From positions 1 through 10,020 of the forward strand of contig JBHGAY010000060.1 in assembly GCA_041946735.1 (NCBI GenBank): a stretch of DNA of 10,020 nt, in the 5' to 3' direction. The notes beneath the pieces are model-generated. The model ran no database searches. It saw only the letters and a list, made by a program, of their open reading frames with translations, and was not told the DNA's origin. This stretch comes from Candidatus Eiseniibacteriota bacterium. Its GTDB lineage: Bacteria > Eisenbacteria > RBG-16-71-46 > CAIMUX01 > VGJL01. The translations under genes were made by a program, and so were the position numbers. Positions 1 through 10,020 of this stretch are shown one piece after another (the first letter of the stretch is position 1; every line of letters starts with the position of its first letter).

Positions 1-60
1 GCACACGGAGGCACGACGTTTCCAGCGCGGTTCGTGCTCGTAGCGGCGATGAATCCCTGA
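1..60 (+). pseudogene. comM: Interrupted comM/YifB-family Mg-chelatase-like AAA+ ATPase (end of the 5' fragment, truncated by element insertion)
   Basis: Frame +1 translates AHGGTTFPARFVLVAAMNP* (TGA 58-60). This matches the conserved ComM/YifB motif FPARFxLVAAMNPCPCG, with the Cys codon TGY converted to TGA. Only 19 codons are visible. Confidence 0.85.
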
Positions 61-1558
61 AGTTGCGTTGCTTTTTTGCAGCGACTTCAGAAGGCGTAGG
101 GAGGTAAAGCATTTGGATATGGACGGTTCCGTTCCCGATGGTGATCCGCTCGACAAGCTGCTCGATGACGGCTCGTTTATCTTCGAAGGCGAGCTTGGGC
201 CAGCGGGTGGAGAGGTCCCGGGCGCCGGTGATGACTTCGTCTTTGGAGATGAGCTGGATCTTCAGGAAGTCGAGCTCGCCCTGCAGACGCGGCATTTCGT
301 CCTCGATCTGCTTCAGGCGCTCCTCAAGGGGGCGGTACTGCCGCCGGTAGCCGTCCATGCCCAGGGCGTCCTCCATGTAGGCCTTTTGGATCTTGTTCAT
401 GGACCGGACGACCTTCGCCTGCTCCTTGGCGAGCGCCGCAAGGCGCTCCTCACGGTCCTTGACCTGCTGATTGCCCTGGGCCAGGTGAGCGGTGAGTTCT
501 TTGGGATCGAGGAAGTAGTTCTTGAGCTCCTCGGCGAAGACGGCCTCGAGGTCGCCGGTCGGGATCTTGGTGCGGCACTTGTAGCAGACGTACTTCGGGG
601 TATTGGAGGGGACGTACATCTTCTGGTTCTCGCCGCAGGAACAGAAGACGACGCCCGTGAAGAGCTGCTTCGGCTTTCGGGCGAGGCGCTTGCCATTCCC
701 CCGATTGCCCTCGAGGATCGCGTTGACCTGGGTCCAGAGCTCTTCGGTGATCAAGGGTTCGACAGGGGTTAGGACCCATTCGCTGCGGTCCTTGAGCTTC
801 CAGTTCTTCTTTTCGCCCAGGGACTTCGTGTAGTTCGCCCTTCGGATCCCCTTGGCCGTCGTGTCGCGCAGAAGCCGGTCGATGGTCGTGTCGGTGAACT
901 TCGAGCCGTTCCGGGTCCGGTGGCCCCGCTCGTTCAAAAGCCGAGCGACGGTCTTCTTCCGCCGGTGCTCCAGGTAGAGCTCGTAGATCAGCTTCCGGAC
1001 CGGGGCTTCCTTGGGATCGGGGACCAAGTCCCGGTCGAGCCAGCGGTAGCCGAAGGGGGCGGCGCCGCCTAGGGGCTTGCCCAGCTTCGCGCGGATGGGG
1101 ACCGAGGCCGCCACCCGCTCGGAGATCTCCTCCCGCTCCCACTGCGCCATGGCGGCGATCATCGTGTAGAAGAGCCGCCCGGCCGGGGTCGAGGTATCGA
1201 TCGACTCGTGGAGGGAGACTAAGTCCGCGTCGCACTCCCGGAAGATGTCGGCAAAATCCAGAAGCTCGCGGGTATTCCGCGCGAGCCGGGCAAGCTTGGA
1301 GAAGATGAGCCCTGAGATGTGCCCGGCACGCACGTCTTTCAGCATCCGCTGGGTCTCGGGGTACCCCATGACGGACTTTCCCGACAGAGCCTCCAGGTGA
1401 TAGACCTCCCGGACCCGCCAGCCCTTGACCTCGGCGTACATGCGGGCGCGCTTCTCGTGGTGCTCGGGGCTCTCGCCCCTGGCCTGGTCCTCGGTCGAGA
1501 CCCGGATCCAGATGCCGACGGGCTTCACTTGTTCGCCGCGAGATCCCGTCTTCTTCAT
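2..1558 (-). CDS. Large serine recombinase/integrase (resolvase catalytic domain, recombinase domain, zinc ribbon, coiled coil); 3' end open at the window edge
   Basis: Manual translation from ATG 1558 (RBS AAAGGAG upstream): MKKTGSRGEQVKPVGIWIRVSTEDQARGESPEHHE, with catalytic RVS (Ser21). Further motifs are SGKS, SKLARLARN, ESIDTSTPAGRLFYTMIAAMAQWEREEISER, PFGY and the zinc ribbon FCSCG...YVCYKC, followed by a coiled coil. No stop down to position 2 (519 codons), so it is absent from the ORF track. Confidence 0.95.
   Translation of the reverse strand, partial: MKKTGSRGEQVKPVGIWIRVSTEDQARGESPEHHEKRARMYAEVKGWRVREVYHLEALSGKSVMGYPETQRMLKDVRAGHISGLIFSKLARLARNTRELLDFADIFRECDADLVSLHESIDTSTPAGRLFYTMIAAMAQWEREEISERVAASVPIRAKLGKPLGGAAPFGYRWLDRDLVPDPKEAPVRKLIYELYLEHRRKKTVARLLNERGHRTRNGSKFTDTTIDRLLRDTTAKGIRRANYTKSLGEKKNWKLKDRSEWVLTPVEPLITEELWTQVNAILEGNRGNGKRLARKPKQLFTGVVFCSCGENQKMYVPSNTPKYVCYKCRTKIPTGDLEAVFAEELKNYFLDPKELTAHLAQGNQQVKDREERLAALAKEQAKVVRSMNKIQKAYMEDALGMDGYRRQYRPLEERLKQIEDEMPRLQGELDFLKIQLISKDEVITGARDLSTRWPKLAFEDKRAVIEQLVERITIGNGTVHIQMLYLPTPSEVAAKKQRNFRDSSPLRARTALETSCLRV
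45..80. other. Hybrid attachment site (attL/attR-type junction) between host comM and the integrated element; crossover at or just before about 59
   Basis: comM coding similarity ends abruptly at ATGAATCCCTG|AAGTTGCG, directly at the 3' end of a large serine recombinase. The exact crossover dinucleotide cannot be fixed without the other end. Confidence 0.7.
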
Positions 1559-1562
1559 GTTT

Positions 1563-1569
1563 CTCCTTT
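1563..1569 (-). promoter_or_regulatory. Shine-Dalgarno sequence of the recombinase
   Basis: Minus strand reads AAAGGAGAAAC-ATG. Confidence 0.75.
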
Positions 1570-1601
1570 GAGGGATGGCGCCCGTCTTGTGGGGTAAGAC
1601 C

Positions 1602-2561
1602 TCAGGGCTTCATCTTTTCCCGAATCTTTGCGGCCTGGACCATGGCTGCTTCGGCAACCTTGAGGATGTCGTCCGACCAGCATGCCCGAGCCAAACCCAA
1701 GTTCTCAATCTCTCTTGCGACGAATGTGACTCTCCCATCCCCTGATGGTTCCACGAATACTCCGGATTGCCCAAGGTGGCCGACAACCATACCGAGGAAT
1801 CGAGGTTGTTGGATCTCCAGCAGAGCTGGTTTGGATGCCGGCGTCGTCACTCCCCCCGCCAGAAACACCGGACTTCCGCTATTGCCACCAAGAGAAACTC
1901 CGTCGATGAGGAACTCAGAACCGGAGCCTATGCGCGCGATCGACCCCGCCCGGAGTACAGGGAGAATTCCATCGGTTCCAGGTACATTGGGAAACCCCAA
2001 GAAGAAGACGCTCATCCCAAGCGTCACCTCCCGACGAGGGAGAGGGTAACCCTCACCAATCGATTTCACGCGAGCGACTTTGATCGGACCGCCGTCCAAC
2101 TCACCTCGCACACCAATAGTCAGAGGGAATGCCGCAATGTCGATCAGGCTGTCGGGATGTGTGGCGTACAACTTCGATCCATTATCGTCCAGTTGATATC
2201 TCGTGCGCAGCCTATCTCCCGCCAGCACCCAGCTTCTTTCATTCAAGACAACTTCGTTGGATCCTCGGGCACCCAACCATGCAATCAACTCCGAGTCAGC
2301 GGCCACCGAGACGAAGATTGACTTGCGCATGAGCAGGTGTGCCGCGGTAACCACGATGAGTGGATCACCAGGTGAATTCCCGATCTTCATCAGAAATCCC
2401 GTACCATGATATACAAACGAGTCGCCCATGACCTTCTCAAACAGGACAAGGCAATCAGGGGTACTAGGGTCCATGCCCACTCCATGCGCCGGCTTTATAC
2501 TAAGAGCCGCCGCGGATAGGCAGACGATTGCGATGATGGGTAACAGGCAGCAATGCTTCAT
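1602..2561 (-). CDS. Secreted trypsin-like (clan PA, S1-like) serine protease, 319 aa
   Basis: N-terminal signal peptide (MKH..LLPIIAIVCLSAAALSIKPAHG); GTGF; catalytic triad motifs VTAAH, IDIA and GGNSGSPV; also LGFP. The start overlaps the upstream gene's stop (ATGA, 2558-2561). Confidence 0.88.
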   Translation of the reverse strand: MKHCCLLPIIAIVCLSAAALSIKPAHGVGMDPSTPDCLVLFEKVMGDSFVYHGTGFLMKIGNSPGDPLIVVTAAHLLMRKSIFVSVAADSELIAWLGARGSNEVVLNERSWVLAGDRLRTRYQLDDNGSKLYATHPDSLIDIAAFPLTIGVRGELDGGPIKVARVKSIGEGYPLPRREVTLGMSVFFLGFPNVPGTDGILPVLRAGSIARIGSGSEFLIDGVSLGGNSGSPVFLAGGVTTPASKPALLEIQQPRFLGMVVGHLGQSGVFVEPSGDGRVTFVAREIENLGLARACWSDDILKVAEAAMVQAAKIREKMKP

Positions 2562-5500
2562 GTTTGTCTCCGAATCCTCTTCATTGTTTTCACTACTACG
2601 CCCGAAACAAGCCGTCGCCTCTCCATTCTCTCGCTATCATTCACCCCCTTGTAGCTCACCCTAACCTGATACCCCCGCACCGTCTTCGTCTTCCCCGAAG
2701 CCTCGGCCTCCAGGCTCTCGAGCACGGCGAACGCCTCTTCCGGAACACAGAAGTGGACCCGCTCGGCCTGCTCGGGAAGCTCCTCCGCCACGGCCGCCTT
2801 GACGGCTTTGAGCGTCTTCTTCTCGCTCGAGACGAGTACGGCCCGATCGAATCCCGCCGCCAGGCACTTCTGCAGGTTCCCGAGCTCGTGCGCCGGGTCG
2901 GTTGTCACCGCGACCTCGCAGGCGACGGTGTGCTCGCCTTTTCGGAGCGAGACGTCGACGCTGCCCAGGCCATCCAAGACCTTCTCTTCGATCGTCACCC
3001 GCCAGTCGTGGGCCTCGCCCCAGCGACGGATCAGCTCCTGAACGTACTTGTGCTGCTGGCCACCCCGGCCGGGAGAGCTCTCCTTCGGAATCCGGGCGGT
3101 CCGCTTCGCCGCTTCCCTGGAGACGGGCGGCCGAGCCTCGGCTGCTGTCTCTTGCTCAGGCGCCGGCGTCTGGACCGGTTCCTTTTCGATCGGCTCCGAA
3201 GCTCTCCGAGGCTCGCGGTGGGGCGCTGTGATCTGATCGCGCTCAGGTGCCGCTCGCTGAAGCTCGGCTTCGACCTCTGCGCGCGACCGGGCGTACTTCT
3301 CCCGCGATCGCGCGGTCGCCTGCTCGCGGCGGGCGGGCCCGGTCTCCGGGTCGACCTTGGGGAGGGGTGCGGTGTCGAGTGTGAAATCGCACTCGGATCG
3401 CTCGACCCGCGCGATCGCCTGCCCCGTGCCCAAGTTCTGCAGGTCCTTGGCCTCGAAGTGGGCAAAGCCGCTTTCCAGCGCCCGAGCATCCTGGTCCCCG
3501 ACCCGGAAGCAAATCCTCGTGTAGGGGTTCGAGAGCACGGAGTTCAAGACTTCCGGGCTGCGGCTGGAGAGCTGCCTGAGATCCTGGTGCGCGAGGATCA
3601 GTCCCAGCCGGTACTTCCGCGCCCCCGAGAGCACCTGCTCCATCGTCGGTGTGACGAAGTTCTGAAACTCATCGATGTAAAGATAGAACGGCCGGCGCTC
3701 GGACTCGGCCACCTCCTGCCGGGAGAGCGCGGTCTGCTGGAGCTTCGAGACCAGCAGCGAGCCCAACAGGTAGGCGTTCTCCTCGCCGATCGCTCCTTGC
3801 GAGAGCCGCGCTAAGAGGATCTTCCCCTGGTCCATGAGCGCGCGGAAGTCGAGGCGCTCGCCCTGTTGCGCCACCATGTAGCGCACGAGCTTCGGCCGCA
3901 AGAAGGTGTCCAGTCGCGTCAGGATCGAGCCTTGCGGCTGCCCTCGCAGGAGCGGGAACTCGTGCTGCCAGTAGTAGACGATCTCGGGATCTCGGACGGA
4001 GGACAAGAACTCCTCGCGGAAGCGCTTCTCGACTAAGAAGAGCCGAAGATCGACCAGGGTCCCGCCGCGATCGCTCTCCAAGAACGCGGCAATCGCATTG
4101 CCGAGGACCGAGGTCATCTGATCACCCCAGGACGTCGACAGTCGGCGGAAAACGGCGACAAGGTCTGAGGAGAGTAGCGTCCGTTCGAGCTCGGAGTGGG
4201 CCGAGAGGATGTTGAACCCGACCGGCCAGTCGGCGTCCGCGGGATTCAGGAGCACGACGTCGTCCAGACGGCCCTCGGGGAGAAACTCCAGGACCCGGTC
4301 GACGAGGTCCCCGTGGGGGTCGAGGACGGCGAGGCCCTCGCCGCGCGCCAGGTCCTGGAGGATCATGTTCAGAAGGAGTGTCGACTTGCCCGTCCCCGAA
4401 GCCCCAATCACGTACATGTGGCGCGAGCGCTGGTCGGGATTCAAGGCCACCGGCACCGCCTTGCCGGCGTGGGTGTTGCTCCCCAGGCCGACGCCTTCCC
4501 CCAGCACGATGGCCGGTGCGCCTCTGGTCTTTCGAGCCTGCCGGTGGAGCTTCTCGCTTCGCACGGATTCCGACGGCGGGTGGACGAGCCCCGCAAGCTC
4601 CTCGACGTTCAGGATCATGCCGGATCGCCGGGAGGCCCTTTCGAGCAGATCCGACTTGTGGTCTTCGGAGTCATAGTCGTCGTTCGAGAGGGGCAGGAGT
4701 TCGTTGCCCGCGGGATCGGAGAACGCTCGGAGGCTTCCGGTCAGCGCCCGGGCAAGCTCCCAGACCCGGCCAAGGTCGGGGCTTGCCACCGCGACTCGGA
4801 CGACCACGGCGTAGAGCGGGCTTGCGACCTTCTCCTTCGTCGCGGCCGTCAGCTCGGGCGCATCGAGGAAGAAGGGCTTGCCGTCCTCGTCCCGTGAAGA
4901 GCGCCAGAAACTGGCCGCCCACGGATGACGGACGGGCTGGAAGAGGACCTGGACCAGGCCCAGTTCCTTCGGCTCTAAGTCAGATAGCGCCGCAGTAATC
5001 CCGATCAGCGGATCGATGTCGAAGCTCCGGAAGGTCCGAAGCGGGAAGTGGACCTCCCGAGCAAGACCGAAGTCGACAATGAGCCGGAAGGCCTCGGGAT
5101 CCGACCAGAGCCCAGACAGGGGCTCTGCCGGCGTCACGACGAGATCCGGGAAGAAGGCCTTCAGCTGGCCGAGGAGGCCGTCCTCGGGGTCTCGGAAGGC
5201 CAGCCGGATCGCCACCTGGCTTTCCCGGCCGAGCACCTCGAACGCCAGGGGGGCGTGACCTGCCGGAAGGCCCACCAGGAAGCGTTCCACGGCCTCTCGC
5301 GGGACCTTGAAGGGCGGTGGGACGGCAAGAACGTACTCGGCGATCCGGCCGCCCGTCCGGGCTTCCTCGGGCTCAGGCTCCGCTTCGGCGTCTCGCACAT
5401 CCTCGAGGTCGGCTTCCGTTGGATTGCCCACGAGGAGCCGGCCGATTCCTCCAACCAAACGCGAGAGCAGGGTCGGGCGGAGACCGTCATCGAAGCCGAG

Positions 5501-5641
5501 ATCGGGAATCGGAGTCCCGTGGAAGCGGAAGGGGACGAACGGTGGCTCGAGGTCCACGGGCGTGTCGAAGAGGCGCCAACCCCGGCCGCGCCTCTCCCAC
5601 GCGTGGAACTGCTCCGTCAGGGCTTCGATCGAGTGGATCAC
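2558..5641 (-). CDS. VirD4/TrwB/TraG-like (FtsK-HerA superfamily) DNA-binding ATPase with a Pro/Glu/Arg-rich linker and a C-terminal PD-(D/E)XK-like domain, 1027 aa
   Basis: RHMYVIGASGTGKS (Walker A), VLDPHGDL, GFNIL, FYLYIDEFQNF (Walker B), ARKYRLGLILAHQ and FRVG..DA are coupling-protein motifs. The C-terminal GRGG..HKYVQ...EEKV...VDVSL...VACEVAVT resembles a restriction-endonuclease-like fold. GTG start. Confidence 0.88.
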   Translation of the reverse strand: MIHSIEALTEQFHAWERRGRGWRLFDTPVDLEPPFVPFRFHGTPIPDLGFDDGLRPTLLSRLVGGIGRLLVGNPTEADLEDVRDAEAEPEPEEARTGGRIAEYVLAVPPPFKVPREAVERFLVGLPAGHAPLAFEVLGRESQVAIRLAFRDPEDGLLGQLKAFFPDLVVTPAEPLSGLWSDPEAFRLIVDFGLAREVHFPLRTFRSFDIDPLIGITAALSDLEPKELGLVQVLFQPVRHPWAASFWRSSRDEDGKPFFLDAPELTAATKEKVASPLYAVVVRVAVASPDLGRVWELARALTGSLRAFSDPAGNELLPLSNDDYDSEDHKSDLLERASRRSGMILNVEELAGLVHPPSESVRSEKLHRQARKTRGAPAIVLGEGVGLGSNTHAGKAVPVALNPDQRSRHMYVIGASGTGKSTLLLNMILQDLARGEGLAVLDPHGDLVDRVLEFLPEGRLDDVVLLNPADADWPVGFNILSAHSELERTLLSSDLVAVFRRLSTSWGDQMTSVLGNAIAAFLESDRGGTLVDLRLFLVEKRFREEFLSSVRDPEIVYYWQHEFPLLRGQPQGSILTRLDTFLRPKLVRYMVAQQGERLDFRALMDQGKILLARLSQGAIGEENAYLLGSLLVSKLQQTALSRQEVAESERRPFYLYIDEFQNFVTPTMEQVLSGARKYRLGLILAHQDLRQLSSRSPEVLNSVLSNPYTRICFRVGDQDARALESGFAHFEAKDLQNLGTGQAIARVERSECDFTLDTAPLPKVDPETGPARREQATARSREKYARSRAEVEAELQRAAPERDQITAPHREPRRASEPIEKEPVQTPAPEQETAAEARPPVSREAAKRTARIPKESSPGRGGQQHKYVQELIRRWGEAHDWRVTIEEKVLDGLGSVDVSLRKGEHTVACEVAVTTDPAHELGNLQKCLAAGFDRAVLVSSEKKTLKAVKAAVAEELPEQAERVHFCVPEEAFAVLESLEAEASGKTKTVRGYQVRVSYKGVNDSERMERRRLVSGVVVKTMKRIRRQT

Positions 5642-5657
5642 GGGCTCTCGCCCCCGT

Positions 5658-5729
5658 TCACGTGACGATGGTTTCCAGAGTCGCGATGAGGAGCAGAATA
5701 GGCAAGCGGGAGAGGCAACACAACGGCAT
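5658..5729 (-). CDS. Candidate small hydrophobic peptide, 23 aa (MPLCCLSRLPILLLIATLETIVT)
   Basis: GGAGG lies 6 nt before ATG 5729 and the stop is TGA at 5660-5658. It fills the gap between the membrane-protein gene and the ATPase gene. Confidence 0.3.
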   Translation of the reverse strand: MPLCCLSRLPILLLIATLETIVT

Positions 5730-5776
5730 GTTGCCCCTCCCCGGGTTGGGCCACGAGCGGCCCGGGCGCGTTCCCC

Positions 5777-6439
5777 CTACTGGCGACTCAAGAGCTCGCT
5801 CAGGACGGGCTTCTCCTCCTCAGTGGTAAGGGCGCGGAGTCCCTTGCTCGCACGGAGGCCGCTGATCACCTCCTTGACCGCCGCCTCGACCTCGGCGCGG
5901 AACATCAGGGCCGTGTCGATCTGGTAGTACGTCGTCGGCCGGAAGATCGCCCGGTAGAGCGTGCCGACGACGGGAAGCATCATCACGGCTGACTCCAATC
6001 CTGGGCGGTTGCGGTGCGCAATACCGGCCACCAGCCACAAGACGAGAGGCAGCGTGAGCAGAGCGACGACCCCGCCGAGGATGGACTGCCAGCGACCGAT
6101 CACGTTCAGGACAAAGAACCCGGCGATGACGAGGAGGGCCATCCAGTCGACGAAGGTCGGCGGACGGATCGCGAGCCACCAGGAGAAGAAGTACCCCGTG
6201 CCGAAGGGAGCGGCGCAGATGTCGAAGACGATGTTGCGCCGCTGGACACGGAAGTACTCCCGATCGGCCGAAGCCACCCCGCCCTCCCGATACCGGATCC
6301 GTTGATACCCAATGTCGGGGACCTTACGGCGAGCGAGGGACTGCATCACCGCATCGTAGAAATCACCGGAGGAGGTGCGGAAATCTTCGAAGGACTGCTG
6401 CCAATGGGCGAGGACTTCGGGATAGGCTTGCCGAGACAT
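5777..6439 (-). CDS. Hypothetical membrane protein (about 220 aa; soluble N-terminal domain followed by 2-3 hydrophobic segments)
   Basis: The ORF track gives 5777..6517, but ATG 6439 (MSRQAYPEV) has a strong RBS (AAGGGAGGAACACTC-ATG). Sequence FDICAAPFGTGYFFSWWL is followed by hydrophobic stretches WMALLVIAGFFVLNVIG and ILGGVVALLTLPLVLWLVAGIA. Confidence 0.8.
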   Translation of the reverse strand: MSRQAYPEVLAHWQQSFEDFRTSSGDFYDAVMQSLARRKVPDIGYQRIRYREGGVASADREYFRVQRRNIVFDICAAPFGTGYFFSWWLAIRPPTFVDWMALLVIAGFFVLNVIGRWQSILGGVVALLTLPLVLWLVAGIAHRNRPGLESAVMMLPVVGTLYRAIFRPTTYYQIDTALMFRAEVEAAVKEVISGLRASKGLRALTTEEEKPVLSELLSRQ

Positions 6440-6517
6440 GAGTGTTCCTCCCTTTCTGACCCTTATCGCCTCGATCTTCGCAATCGATCCCCCCGGTTCT
6501 CCTCGATGGCTCGGCAC

Positions 6518-7546
6518 CTAGATCGAGTCGAGCCGAGAAGAATGAGAGAGTCCCCACCGGACCTGGGCGATCACCAGCACTCGGTCCGGCTCCTCTGCAG
6601 TCGCGAAACGGCTGCCAAACCCGGTGGAGATCCAGAGGCCCTCGGACGCTCGAAACTCCAAACCGGCGGACCATTTGCCGCTCGAGGCGTCCGCCGGTGC
6701 CCCCTTCTCTAAGTGCTCGATCCCAACAAGCTCGAGAAAGGCATTGGTGCTTCCCGAGCCTATGCGTGCCTGCCCGGCGTAGCGGAGGACGCCTTCCCGT
6801 GGTTGGGCGGCCTGGGCTTGCCGTTGGTCGAACTGCACCTGAGCCCGAAACTGCCCGTACTTCATCAGCGGCTGTGACCCCACGAGCCAGATGCTCGTGC
6901 CGAGCCACTCGGTGCGGTCAATCTCAGAGCGTTCAGCCCTCGCTCCTCCTGCCAGGCCTAACGAGAGCCTCCGGGCGTTCCAGTGCTCCTCGAACCAGGC
7001 GGCGCGCAGCTCCTCGCTCTTCTCGTCTAGGCACGACTGTGAGCTTCGTTCCCCAGGCAGCGCGGGCCGACAATCCGCGAACGCCTTGGCAAGCGCGGCC
7101 GTGAACCCCGGATCCCTCATCGGGTCGCCTTCATCGACCAGATTGACTCGAATTCCGACCGCCAGGTCCGTCGAAGCGCTGTCCCCAGAGGCTCGGGCCG
7201 TACCGACCGAGAGCTGGGTGGTCGCAAGCACGTAGGCGCTCCAACTCTTCTGATAGCGATCGAGATCGACGTTCAAGGCGGGAAGCAGCGTGGAGGGAGT
7301 GACATCGAGTGCAAAGCCTTGCTGGATCTCTCCGTGTTCTCCGACCGCATTCAGAAGCGTGACGGCCATATCCCGCGGCGACCCGGGTTGGGAGGCGGCC
7401 GTCGGCGAGACGCCGAGAAACGTGAAGGCCGGAGCGTCCGGGACGGCGTAGTCGACGACCGGTACATCCGCACCGGGTGCGACCGTCGCAGTGATGGCGA
7501 GTAGGACGAGTGCGAGCACGCACGGCAAGACGGAGTCGTTCCACAT
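6518..7546 (-). CDS. Exported hypothetical protein, probably an outer-membrane beta-barrel-like protein, 342 aa
   Basis: Signal peptide (VLPCVLALVLLAITATVAPGA); GGAGG RBS overlapping the upstream stop codon. The C-terminal half has alternating amphipathic strands (LSLGLAGG, SIWLVGS, FRAQVQF, WSAGLEF, LWISTGFG, VIAQVRWGL). Confidence 0.7.
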   Translation of the reverse strand: MWNDSVLPCVLALVLLAITATVAPGADVPVVDYAVPDAPAFTFLGVSPTAASQPGSPRDMAVTLLNAVGEHGEIQQGFALDVTPSTLLPALNVDLDRYQKSWSAYVLATTQLSVGTARASGDSASTDLAVGIRVNLVDEGDPMRDPGFTAALAKAFADCRPALPGERSSQSCLDEKSEELRAAWFEEHWNARRLSLGLAGGARAERSEIDRTEWLGTSIWLVGSQPLMKYGQFRAQVQFDQRQAQAAQPREGVLRYAGQARIGSGSTNAFLELVGIEHLEKGAPADASSGKWSAGLEFRASEGLWISTGFGSRFATAEEPDRVLVIAQVRWGLSHSSRLDSI

Positions 7547-7558
7547 GGCCCGCGCCTC

Positions 7559-7915
7559 CTAGATGAGCTCGACGGAGCCGGTGACTTCCGCCGCTCCCTT
7601 TCCGCTCACCTTGCCTTGATGCAGGAGATCCCCGCCAATAAGGAGTTTCCCGCCCTGAGAGAGCAGAAGGAGGGCCACGTAGCGCGTGTGAGGGTTTCCT
7701 CCGACGGCGAACCAGTAGGCGATCTCCGTCCCCCGGGACAGTGCTCCGAGACTCTGATGGTCAGGGGCGGAGTCCCGGGATTCCCCGTCGGCCACGACCT
7801 GCCACTCGTCCTCGGGGACTCGCGTCCAGATCCGATAGTTCACAACGTGTGGCGTTCGAACAACGACGTTCACCTCGAGCTCCATCGCGGGGTCCATGCG
7901 GATCGGTCCGGCCAT
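7559..7915 (-). CDS. Hypothetical protein, 118 aa, beta-rich
   Basis: RBS GAAGGGAG before ATG; protein-like composition; 12-bp gap to the next gene; first ORF after the sigma-54 promoter. Confidence 0.65.
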   Translation of the reverse strand: MAGPIRMDPAMELEVNVVVRTPHVVNYRIWTRVPEDEWQVVADGESRDSAPDHQSLGALSRGTEIAYWFAVGGNPHTRYVALLLLSQGGKLLIGGDLLHQGKVSGKGAAEVTGSVELI

Positions 7916-8859: not shown

Positions 8860-10020
8860 TCATTGGGCGACGCCCAACACGAGCACGTCCGTCGCCGACC
8901 CTTGACTCAAGCGTCGCGACCACGTTTCGCCGTTGTCGTCGGAGGTGAAGACGCCATCGAAGCCGGCCGCGAAGATCCGTCCCGTCGCCGGATCGATGGC
9001 GAGGCCCGCCAGCACTCCGGCCGGCACGGTCCAGCCCGACCAGCTCCGCCCGCCGTCGGTGGAACGATTCGAACCGACGTAGACGATCGAGGCATCTTGG
9101 GGATCGAAGACCACCGACCGGCGGTCGGCGGCGTCAGCGACCCTCGTCCAGGACTGAAGGCGGTTTTCGCTCAGGAAGATGCCGGCTCGGGTGCAGGCAA
9201 CCGCTCGGGCCGGATCGCTCGGATCCATTCCGACCGAGTACACACTGACTCGGAGGAGCCCTTCCCGGGCTCCGATGGGAAGCGCCGCCCAGGTGGCACC
9301 TTGGTCCGTGCTCTCGAAGAGCCCGTTCGTCGCGACATCCGGGTCGAAGTCGTCGGTTCCGATCACGAACCGGTTGGGGTTGTCAGGATCGATCCAGACC
9401 CAATGGACGGCGACCGCAATCGACGGATACGAAGGCACCTTGGGAAGGCCGGCGGAGATGTTGGTCCAGCTGACGCCATCCGTGGAGCGGAACACGCCCC
9501 CGGCGTCGCCGGTGATGCCATTGCAGTCCGCGGATGGCGCATACCCGGCCGTGCCGAGCAGGAACATAGCGGATTGGACCGCAAGGGCCTGGATGCCCGT
9601 GCATGTCAGAAGCGCCGGCTCGCTCACCAAATCAAAGGTCTTGCCGCGATCTTGGCTTCTGTAGATCCGGGTCACCCCTTGTCCGGACCAGTCCCGGATG
9701 CCCGAGGAGGCCCAGACGACGTCGGGGGCGTCAGGGTCGGCAACAAGAATGCCGACCTGATGCCGGAAGTCGCTGAGTTCGCTTTCCTGCCAACTTCGGC
9801 CGCCGTCTTCGGAGTACCAGACTCCGTTGGACTCCGTCCCCACGAGCACGTACGAAGACGACTCCGTCGGGGTCTGCCCGCTTGCCGTGTTGGACTGCGC
9901 CGACCCGTTGCCAGCGGCATCGACGCTCTTGATTCGGAAGACATACGTGTGGCCCGACGCCAGGCCCGTGACTTGGAACGTCTCCGTCGTTCCGGCGGCG
10001 GCAGGAGTCGGCTCCCCGGA
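8860..10020 (-). CDS. 3' part of a probably extracellular protein: fibronectin type III domain followed by a BNR/Asp-box beta-propeller; 5' end outside the window
   Basis: The frame stays open from 9849 to the edge: SGEPTPAAAGTTETFQVTGLASGHTYVFRIKSVDAAGNGSAQSN (FN3 signature). Seven Asp-box-like repeats follow: SEDGGRSW, SQDRGKTF, STDGVSW, STDQGATW, SENRLQSW, STDGGRSW, SDDNGETW. Confidence 0.85.
   Translation of the reverse strand, partial: SGEPTPAAAGTTETFQVTGLASGHTYVFRIKSVDAAGNGSAQSNTASGQTPTESSSYVLVGTESNGVWYSEDGGRSWQESELSDFRHQVGILVADPDAPDVVWASSGIRDWSGQGVTRIYRSQDRGKTFDLVSEPALLTCTGIQALAVQSAMFLLGTAGYAPSADCNGITGDAGGVFRSTDGVSWTNISAGLPKVPSYPSIAVAVHWVWIDPDNPNRFVIGTDDFDPDVATNGLFESTDQGATWAALPIGAREGLLRVSVYSVGMDPSDPARAVACTRAGIFLSENRLQSWTRVADAADRRSVVFDPQDASIVYVGSNRSTDGGRSWSGWTVPAGVLAGLAIDPATGRIFAAGFDGVFTSDDNGETWSRRLSQGSATDVLVLGVAQ

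Follow-up and report, generated by a model that had tools for sequence, protein, structure and literature searches.

A serine integrase reading frame that crosses its own attachment site in comM and, in relatives of the element, continues into a tandem helix-turn-helix module

Integrase genes that contain their own attachment site are known from integrases of the tyrosine type. In the Myxococcus phage Mx8, attP lies inside int, and integration makes a new int 3' end that changes the specificity of the enzyme without inactivating it (PMC6070905; also cited in PMC4383910). In the 'suicidal' integrases of the SSV type (SSV1, pTN3 and pT26-2, from archaeal viruses and plasmids) the att site lies within the integrase gene, which is partitioned on integration in a compact all-in-one module, and a review places such gene-disrupting integrases exclusively in archaea (PMC8371274). 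We describe a large serine recombinase (LSR) encoded by the int gene at one end of an integrative element in a bacterium of the Candidatus Eiseniibacteriota (Eisenbacteria), the reading frame of which crosses the junction between the element and the host gene comM; it lies on a contig of 10,020 nucleotides (GCA_041946735.1, JBHGAY010000060.1) that was analysed over its whole length and is called the window below.

Serine integrases are prized for genome engineering as simple, one-directional enzymes whose reversal normally needs a separate directionality factor. Engineered fusions of the phiC31 integrase to its recombination directionality factor (RDF) indicate that an attached module can set the direction of recombination (PMC5737554); those constructs are synthetic and join the enzyme to an established directionality factor, and an RDF role for the tail of the natural fusion discussed here is conceivable by analogy. 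Insertion of LSRs into comM-type genes is already known, as is an att site inside int for tyrosine integrases (Mx8 and the SSV type). In the survey of Durrant et al. the Mg-chelatase/'ATP-dependent protease' (comM/yifB) type gene family is the target of 12.4% of predicted site-specific LSRs (10.1101/2021.11.05.467528), and the recombinase sr1WO of phage WO inserts into the Wolbachia Mg-chelatase gene, with HTH_XRE genes at the far end of the prophage (10.1101/2021.11.04.467296). These recombinases are of the same class and have the same target gene as the one described here; the accessible text of neither report mentions a recombinase open reading frame (ORF) that crosses attP, or a fusion to a helix-turn-helix (HTH) module on excision. 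Our literature searches, made in a library with few subscription journals, returned no description of a serine integrase ORF that crosses attP or sheds an HTH module.

A reading of the window made from its letters alone (the sequence-only reading) had proposed that attP lies inside the 3' end of the integrase gene, so that excised and integrated forms of the element encode different C-termini, and had offered Mx8 and mycobacteriophage BPs as analogies. The likeness to Mx8 IntP/IntX is sound for the layout, attP lying inside the int coding sequence (PMC6070905), with a crossover inside the int ORF and a C-terminus altered by integration. Mx8 Int, however, is a tyrosine recombinase that targets a tRNA locus, whereas the present enzyme is an LSR with a 2-bp crossover and comM as its target, which would shed a tandem-HTH module; judged by its sequence, it lacks the tyrosine chemistry, resembles Mx8 in layout only and is no member of that family. 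With the SSV type it shares an att site within the integrase gene, partition of that gene on integration and a compact all-in-one module. It is unlike the SSV type in that the catalytic and core DNA-binding domains are left intact, only a C-terminal accessory module is removed, and the hosts are bacteria; a suicidal split leaves neither half active, and here, to judge from domain content, the recombinase domains stay on one ORF. BPs reportedly carries attP in a regulator ORF, where integration trims the C-terminus of a stand-alone repressor. Measured against that, the analogy is good in part: attP lies in an ORF and integration changes the form of a protein, but what is affected here is an HTH module detached from the recombinase that precedes it, not a trimmed repressor.

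The window is the entire contig (C57 of this genome's assembly; G000:C57:1-10020), so the frame, which the sequence-only reading had seen leaving the window still open, leaves the assembly and not merely the window. The features at its left end are as follows, C69 being a second contig of the same assembly and G001 and G003 the genomes of two relatives.

2..1558, minus strand: LSR ORF of 519 codons, open at its 3' end; the element contributes codons 1-500, and codons 501-519 (bases 58-2) are antisense comM.
1..59, plus strand: end of the 5' part of host comM and left (B) half of attB; sense ...FPARFVLVAAMNP plus the TG of a Cys codon, identical to C69:1-59.
58..59, no strand: crossover dinucleotide TG, the last bases common to the occupied (C57) and empty (C69) sites and the sole sequence shared by attL and attR in G001 and G003.
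58..60, plus strand: TGA stop closing the truncated comM frame (...ATG AAT CCC TGA), made of the core TG and the first island base.
60..83, no strand: P' half-site of attP, within the last integrase codons, with the motif TGCGTTGC at 64-71; the half-site fits the P' consensus of 53 type-A relatives (those whose integrase runs into antisense comM 5') and is a mirror image of the consensus of the P arm in 42 tails.

Translation of the minus strand from 1558 to 2 meets no stop, either before the junction or after it, and its C-terminal end reads ...AAKKQRNF and then RDSSPLRARTALETSCLRV. Codon 500 (TTC, bases 61-59) straddles the junction at 59/60 and the final 19 codons are antisense comM, just as the sequence-only reading had described them; the plus-strand sequence of bases 1-59, AHGGTTFPARFVLVAAMNP plus TG, is comM in the sense direction. 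The first 59 nt of C69 are identical to the window, after which C69 continues as ...CPCGFLGD... to the comM stop (183 codons in total) and matches PF01078 Mg_chelatase at profile positions 142-204. C57 and C69 thus part after base 59. End overlaps of 57-59 nt are also found between other contig pairs of the assembly, and so the 59-nt overlap is the assembler's usual one and C57 and C69 are the two arms of a fork in the assembly, with attL at the occupied site and attB at the empty one. It had been allowed that the true crossover might lie beyond the stop codon of int; comparison of C57 with C69 places it at the TG of bases 58-59, inside the open ORF. A TGA formed by the core TG together with the first base of the island cuts comM short after ...AAMNP. 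On the best explanation the window contains attL, at the left end of an integrative element whose own LSR placed it in the Cys codon of the AAMNP/CPCG motif of comM.

A stop hidden before base 60 by a sequencing error had been raised as a further way in which the open frame might mislead. We aligned contigs of three public runs to window 1-1600 (X1, possibly the source run, and X2 cover nearly all of it, X3 part) and found no variant letters, insertions or deletions; because these contigs come from independent runs, and because relatives also lack the stop, the open frame is no sequencing error. The same fork appears at base 59 in X1 and in X2. Depths in X1 are 43.4 for the comM piece common to both branches, 23.5 for the island branch and 14.7 for a branch whose loose end continues comM; the corresponding depths in X2 are 12.3, 7.16 and 7.87. 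Occupied and empty sites therefore coexist in both runs, and we read the depths only as polymorphism because depth is no share of cells. With occupied and empty sites at comparable depth the island is polymorphic, and it has perhaps been mobile recently.

The enzyme has the domains of an LSR. Pfam places Resolvase (PF00239) at residues 16-158 (E 1.4e-30) and Recombinase (PF07508) at 182-285 (E 1.8e-20), and NCBIfam returns CcrB and XisF, both sub-threshold. The catalytic residues S24 and R22 (P0008 numbering, within ...RVSTEDQ) are invariant among 65 aligned sequences, and the zinc-ribbon cysteines C309, C311, C326 and C329 are invariant in the alignment of relatives, the window's enzyme having all four; the zinc-ribbon profile PF13408 is weak in two deposited homologues, P0004 and P0018 (E 0.004), and coiled-coil families match weakly at about residues 350-447 of P0004. 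All of the recombinase domains lie before codon 500 and are kept on one ORF. By sequence, then, this is an LSR, with a resolvase-type catalytic domain and its serine nucleophile, a Recombinase domain and a four-cysteine zinc ribbon, and the att sites of its relatives G001 and G003 also look like those of LSRs: they are short, have a 2-bp crossover and no long direct repeats, and include an imperfectly palindromic attP.

That attP was rebuilt from relatives. G003 and G001 each have the two ends of the island on a single contig; the islands measure about 44 kb and about 147 kb (the latter may be composite), and attL and attR have only the TG in common. Joining the island-side halves yields a symmetric site in both genomes, and the arms follow a mirrored consensus, TGCGTTGCC.TTT.TG, at equal distance from the core (P', n=53; P, n=42), an arrangement that matches the anatomy expected of a serine-integrase attP. 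The integrase frame is open and in frame across the rebuilt site in 2/2 cases, and in 47/53 type-A integrase ends the codon boundary falls at the core C/A (sense strand), which is the reading phase of the tails. Together with the crossover mapped from C57 and C69, the rebuilt sites bear out the proposal that attP lies within the 3' end of the integrase ORF. The suggested reconstruction of attP from the far junction could be made in G001 and G003, where both ends are present, and not in this genome, whose far end is absent from the bin. The half-site motif occurs once in the whole window, so that it pointed to no candidate operator at which the tail might bind. A search of the JGI metagenomes with an exact 31-mer from the P' arm of the window matched 0 contigs.

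Past the crossover, the rebuilt frame in G001 and G003 reads ...[IT]PALPFC.L.L+.P+P..RAYPTELR..GDH.RKRRLDLGL.QRE..., the start of a tandem XRE-type HTH module, and runs on for 208 codons in G001 and 150 in G003. Intact fused proteins of 640-690 amino acids are present in public data: in P0004 (649 aa) and P0018 (663 aa), Resolvase and Recombinase domains are followed by two HTH_3/HTH_31 domains, and the joint has the same sequence (in P0004, PF01381 with E 8e-17 and PF13560 with E 2e-14). When the tail alone was searched among proteins of 356-1136 aa, 8/12 matches were LSR-HTH fusions, one of the eight truncated. A degenerate attP pattern found six loci in the JGI metagenomes, four with integrase and tail adjacent on one strand and two too short to show an integrase. 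Homology among 42 tails begins exactly at the crossover, and in the integrated state the frame upstream of that point is open for 2 to 422 codons with no conservation of sequence. Within the close group the linker that follows the half-site has a pN/pS (nonsynonymous over synonymous divergence) of 0.36, as against 0.21 for the first HTH domain, and so is under purifying selection; the seven half-site codons (P arm) show lowered synonymous divergence (pS), as expected of a DNA-binding site. An AlphaFold2 model of the tail (mean pLDDT 85, pTM 0.70) has residues 1-27 disordered and then two HTH domains, and a fold search with the tail returned only generic Cro/C1-type HTH proteins, the best Protein Data Bank matches being 434 Cro, P22 C2, HipB and C.Esp1396I (TM about 0.75 on target, E >= 5e-3, statistically weak). 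From sequence and model together we classify the tail module of the relatives as XRE-family HTH with a predicted Cro/C1-type fold. A complex prediction for the Int core (residues 1-501 of P0008, alignment A2) with the tail (alignment A1) scored 0.25 (mark 0.32) and is counted neither way.

The missing stop is general among relatives. Three close relatives from the same taxonomic family (67-70% identity) have the same junction, and with the window's copy 4/4 lack a stop before it. In a survey of 206 genomes of the Eisenbacteria phylum the recombinase is present in 16, and none of the 16 3' ends, 12 of them beyond the family, has a stop before the junction. Contigs from one-genome-per-species collections contain 557 stretches that encode a relative; the 3' flanks of the best 80 are antisense comM 5' in 61 (type A, like the window), sense comM 3' in three (type B), an HTH tail in six and other or unknown sequence in six, and four are cut by a contig end; of the 76 complete 3' ends, not one has a stop ahead of the junction. 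The comparison of tails across comM-targeting homologues that the sequence-only reading had called for gave a similar picture: among the best 120 homologous proteins (64-71% identity), 111 end in a comM-antisense C-terminal motif, two are HTH-fused and seven are other. The comM-derived tail in those 111 has a median length of 8 codons (exactly 8 in 81/111), and in the window's copy it is at least 19. No relative closer than 30% identity was found in phage and plasmid collections.

Titles of the best 80 loci name Acidobacteriota, Proteobacteria, Chloroflexota, Bacteroidota, Planctomycetota, Candidate Phyla Radiation (CPR) groups and more. We note that integrase identity is 59-80% between titles of very different phyla, including CPR and archaeal metagenome-assembled genomes (L079-L158), which points to a very broad host range, to mis-binned contigs or to both; some of the labels may reflect mis-binning. 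In the type-B minority, whose elements lie the other way round in comM (integrase ends L070, L073, L075, L076, L112, L149 and L151), the integrase enters the comM 3' part in the sense direction and out of frame, giving long chance ORFs. Tails in the opposite orientation (L054, L065 and L051) lie directly behind the comM 5' part in sense, with a stop 2 codons before the tail. Two related integrases, at L069 (G155) and L078 (G099), end in ...EEAWP... and adjoin a gene start that reads ...IGKPAPDF(T/S)LPSTTG...; we take this gene to be peroxiredoxin-like, and it would be a different target site within the family.

A sister clade, P0128, aligns with the core at about 27% identity and with the tail at 45%. 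The majority of its best 120 matches are LSR-HTH proteins of about 680 aa, and fused ORFs of nearly constant length are kept down to 54% identity. A constitutive LSR-HTH architecture was considered for this clade and rejected, since 15/15 of its Eisenbacteria matches end near residue 530; the 6/6 ends examined run into other DNA, two of them into antisense comM. The sister clade is thus also split on integration, which makes the layout older and wider than the comM-type-A clade. The frame of one sister-clade integrase, L166 (G022:C142), stays open over 1195 aa and passes, with no stop, into what resembles a membrane-transporter gene.

The sequences of the relatives show that one int-HTH ORF contains attP and that integration swaps a DNA-binding module of 150-210 aa for a junk tail. 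The ORF comprises, in order, a recombinase core of about 500 codons, the 2-base crossover, seven codons of the far half-site, a linker of some 20 disordered residues and then XRE-type HTH domains, two or sometimes three in number. Recombination with comM transfers the part downstream of codon 500 to the opposite island end, so that the integrated copy encodes a core-only enzyme with a short antisense-comM tail and only the attP form can encode the full Int-HTH protein. By analogy with Mx8 IntP/IntX, loss of the tail could act as a state-dependent switch. The free element alone would then produce the full-length enzyme, as an integration-time or regulatory form, and the core-only enzyme of the integrated element would be altered in its activity or regulation. 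In relatives the fused ORF is shown to have this layout and phase and to be conserved, and from them we infer that the element of the window has an HTH tail of its own. For this explanation as a whole (a single-ORF int-attP-HTH layout with loss of the tail on integration into comM, including the window's own tail and the switch) we estimate a probability of about 0.72. That excised and integrated forms differ at the C-terminus, as had been proposed, is borne out in relatives, where the excised form continues in frame into the tandem HTH module and the integrated form has the short antisense-comM tail, and probably extends to this genome. The scale of the difference had been underestimated, as a whole HTH module is lost. 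It is possible that the tail helps integration, represses or activates genes of the element, or bears on directionality.

Several points weigh against this explanation. An in-frame TTG lies at tail codon 4, inside the conserved half-site motif, in 34/42 tails, and conservation of the linker would also fit a stand-alone HTH protein. Fused forms are few in this clade (2/120 of the best proteins and 6/80 of the best loci), and some intact int-HTH genes in the attP form (L081, L098, L118, L137 and L162) lie on contigs of 75-350 kb, which sets them apart from small free circles; an un-recombined attP might come to sit in a large replicon through tandem copies, on a plasmid or as a passenger of another element. 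Conservation of the reading phase may be in part a product of fixed att-site geometry and not of selection for fusion. The far end of the island of this genome was found neither by tblastn with two tails against the bin nor in the genome search (0 tail matches in G000), and its attP form is accordingly presumed on the strength of relatives that are 67-70% identical; nor does the G000 bin contain the 5' part of comM. Lastly, no attP branch was seen at 60-89 among the X1 and X2 contigs. Contigs drop rare forms, so this does not count as a sign of absence.

Some of these points would also suit an independent XRE regulator that starts at the TTG in the P arm, its fusion to Int being incidental. 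Such a regulator would stand behind the int operon only in the circle, and its expression would report the excised state; transcription across the joint of circular Tn916 offers a comparison for wiring of this kind. In keeping with it are the TTG itself, the place of int at the end of a co-oriented operon, just 43 nt after the preceding gene, and the integrated tail, which faces inward from the comM side behind a frame that is not conserved; the far-end HTH_XRE genes of phage WO sr1WO are likewise treated as separate genes (10.1101/2021.11.04.467296). No element, however, has a stop between Int and the tail, and the fused ORFs of the sister clade keep a nearly constant length. Moreover, the half-site motif GCGTTGCC itself imposes a TTG, the conservation of which is therefore uninformative about its use as a start. 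Because the TTG could nevertheless serve as one, we keep the stand-alone regulator in consideration as an unlikely alternative.

A bolder form of the tail-shedding explanation, which we regard as unlikely, is that directionality is written in the substrate: the free form would encode a full-length Int-HTH in integration mode, and the integrated form a core-only enzyme that is either prone to excision or checked by the detached HTH. Were this so, no separate directionality factor would be needed.

We consider it very improbable that the integrated integrase genes are decaying remnants of fixed islands, their missing stops and junk tails being without functional meaning. It is true that orphan tails outnumber integrases, that some tails contain premature stops and that G015 retains only a C-terminal fragment of the integrase joined to a tail. 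Set against this are full-length integrase ORFs at 59-80% identity in many phyla with invariant catalytic and zinc-ribbon residues, the occupied/empty polymorphism of the island in two separate runs, and the existence of intact attP forms. On the tails themselves we note that they are found detached in 33/206 genomes, with up to five per genome, as against 16/206 for integrases; arrays of orphan tails occur on G006:C1 and C53 (L028-L031, L034) and on G114:C373 (L037, L041, L048), and G114 has three units of tail plus comM 3' fragment within about 15 kb. An artefact (a chimeric contig end, a stop-hiding sequencing error or a chance frame in DNA of 64-68% G+C) is hardly credible, for although the junction falls at a fork in the assembly, 59 nt short of a contig end, and high G+C yields long chance ORFs, type-B copies reading about 165 codons out of frame through comM 3', the independent runs give the identical sequence and the same junction, phase and missing stop recur in relatives.

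The integrase gene is the last of a co-oriented minus-strand block (window 1602-7915), made up as follows.

1602..2561, minus strand: trypsin-like peptidase gene, 43 nt upstream of int (PF13365, E 1.2e-5, below cut-off; PADLOC PDC-S45, E 8.6e-9).
2558..5641, minus strand: coupling-protein-like (TrwB/TraD/HerA) ATPase of 1027 aa, an element backbone gene (Pfam TrwB_AAD_bind and TraG-D_C; NCBIfam VirD4-like and TraD sub-threshold).
5777..7915, minus strand: three co-oriented ORFs of 246, 342 and 118 aa from the ORF list, with no family match in Pfam or NCBIfam.

PADLOC also matches the ATPase to mad8 (E 1.7e-20). The 246-, 342- and 118-aa ORFs are probably in the same operon as int, and on a 206-kb metagenome contig (L162) homologues of the ATPase (64% identity) and of the 246-aa ORF (39%) adjoin a fused int-HTH gene. 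No known RDF family was matched among the window ORFs by Pfam, NCBIfam or PADLOC. There is no terminator-like site on the minus strand in 1-130 of the window and a promoter scan found nothing; the layout implies that transcription of int would run antisense into comM. At the other end of the contig, an inverted near-repeat of 87 nt (96.6% identity) is shared by window 9863-9949 and C55:1-87, inside a BNR/Asp-box repeat gene, and may be the cause of the assembly break there.

The integrase family to which this enzyme belongs is very widespread, with 557 matches in one-genome-per-species collections that span many phyla at 59-80% identity, and its members alter their own protein at every integration by shedding a whole DNA-binding module. 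Catalogues and annotation pipelines that work from integrated copies give these enzymes a false C-terminus and overlook the tail. Should activity or regulation differ between the two forms, the layout would constitute a new natural control of a serine integrase and a bacterial, serine-type counterpart of an arrangement that a review calls exclusive to archaeal tyrosine integrases (PMC8371274). If, in addition, directionality proved to be encoded in the substrate, the family would provide a self-contained two-state switch for a serine integrase across many bacterial phyla.

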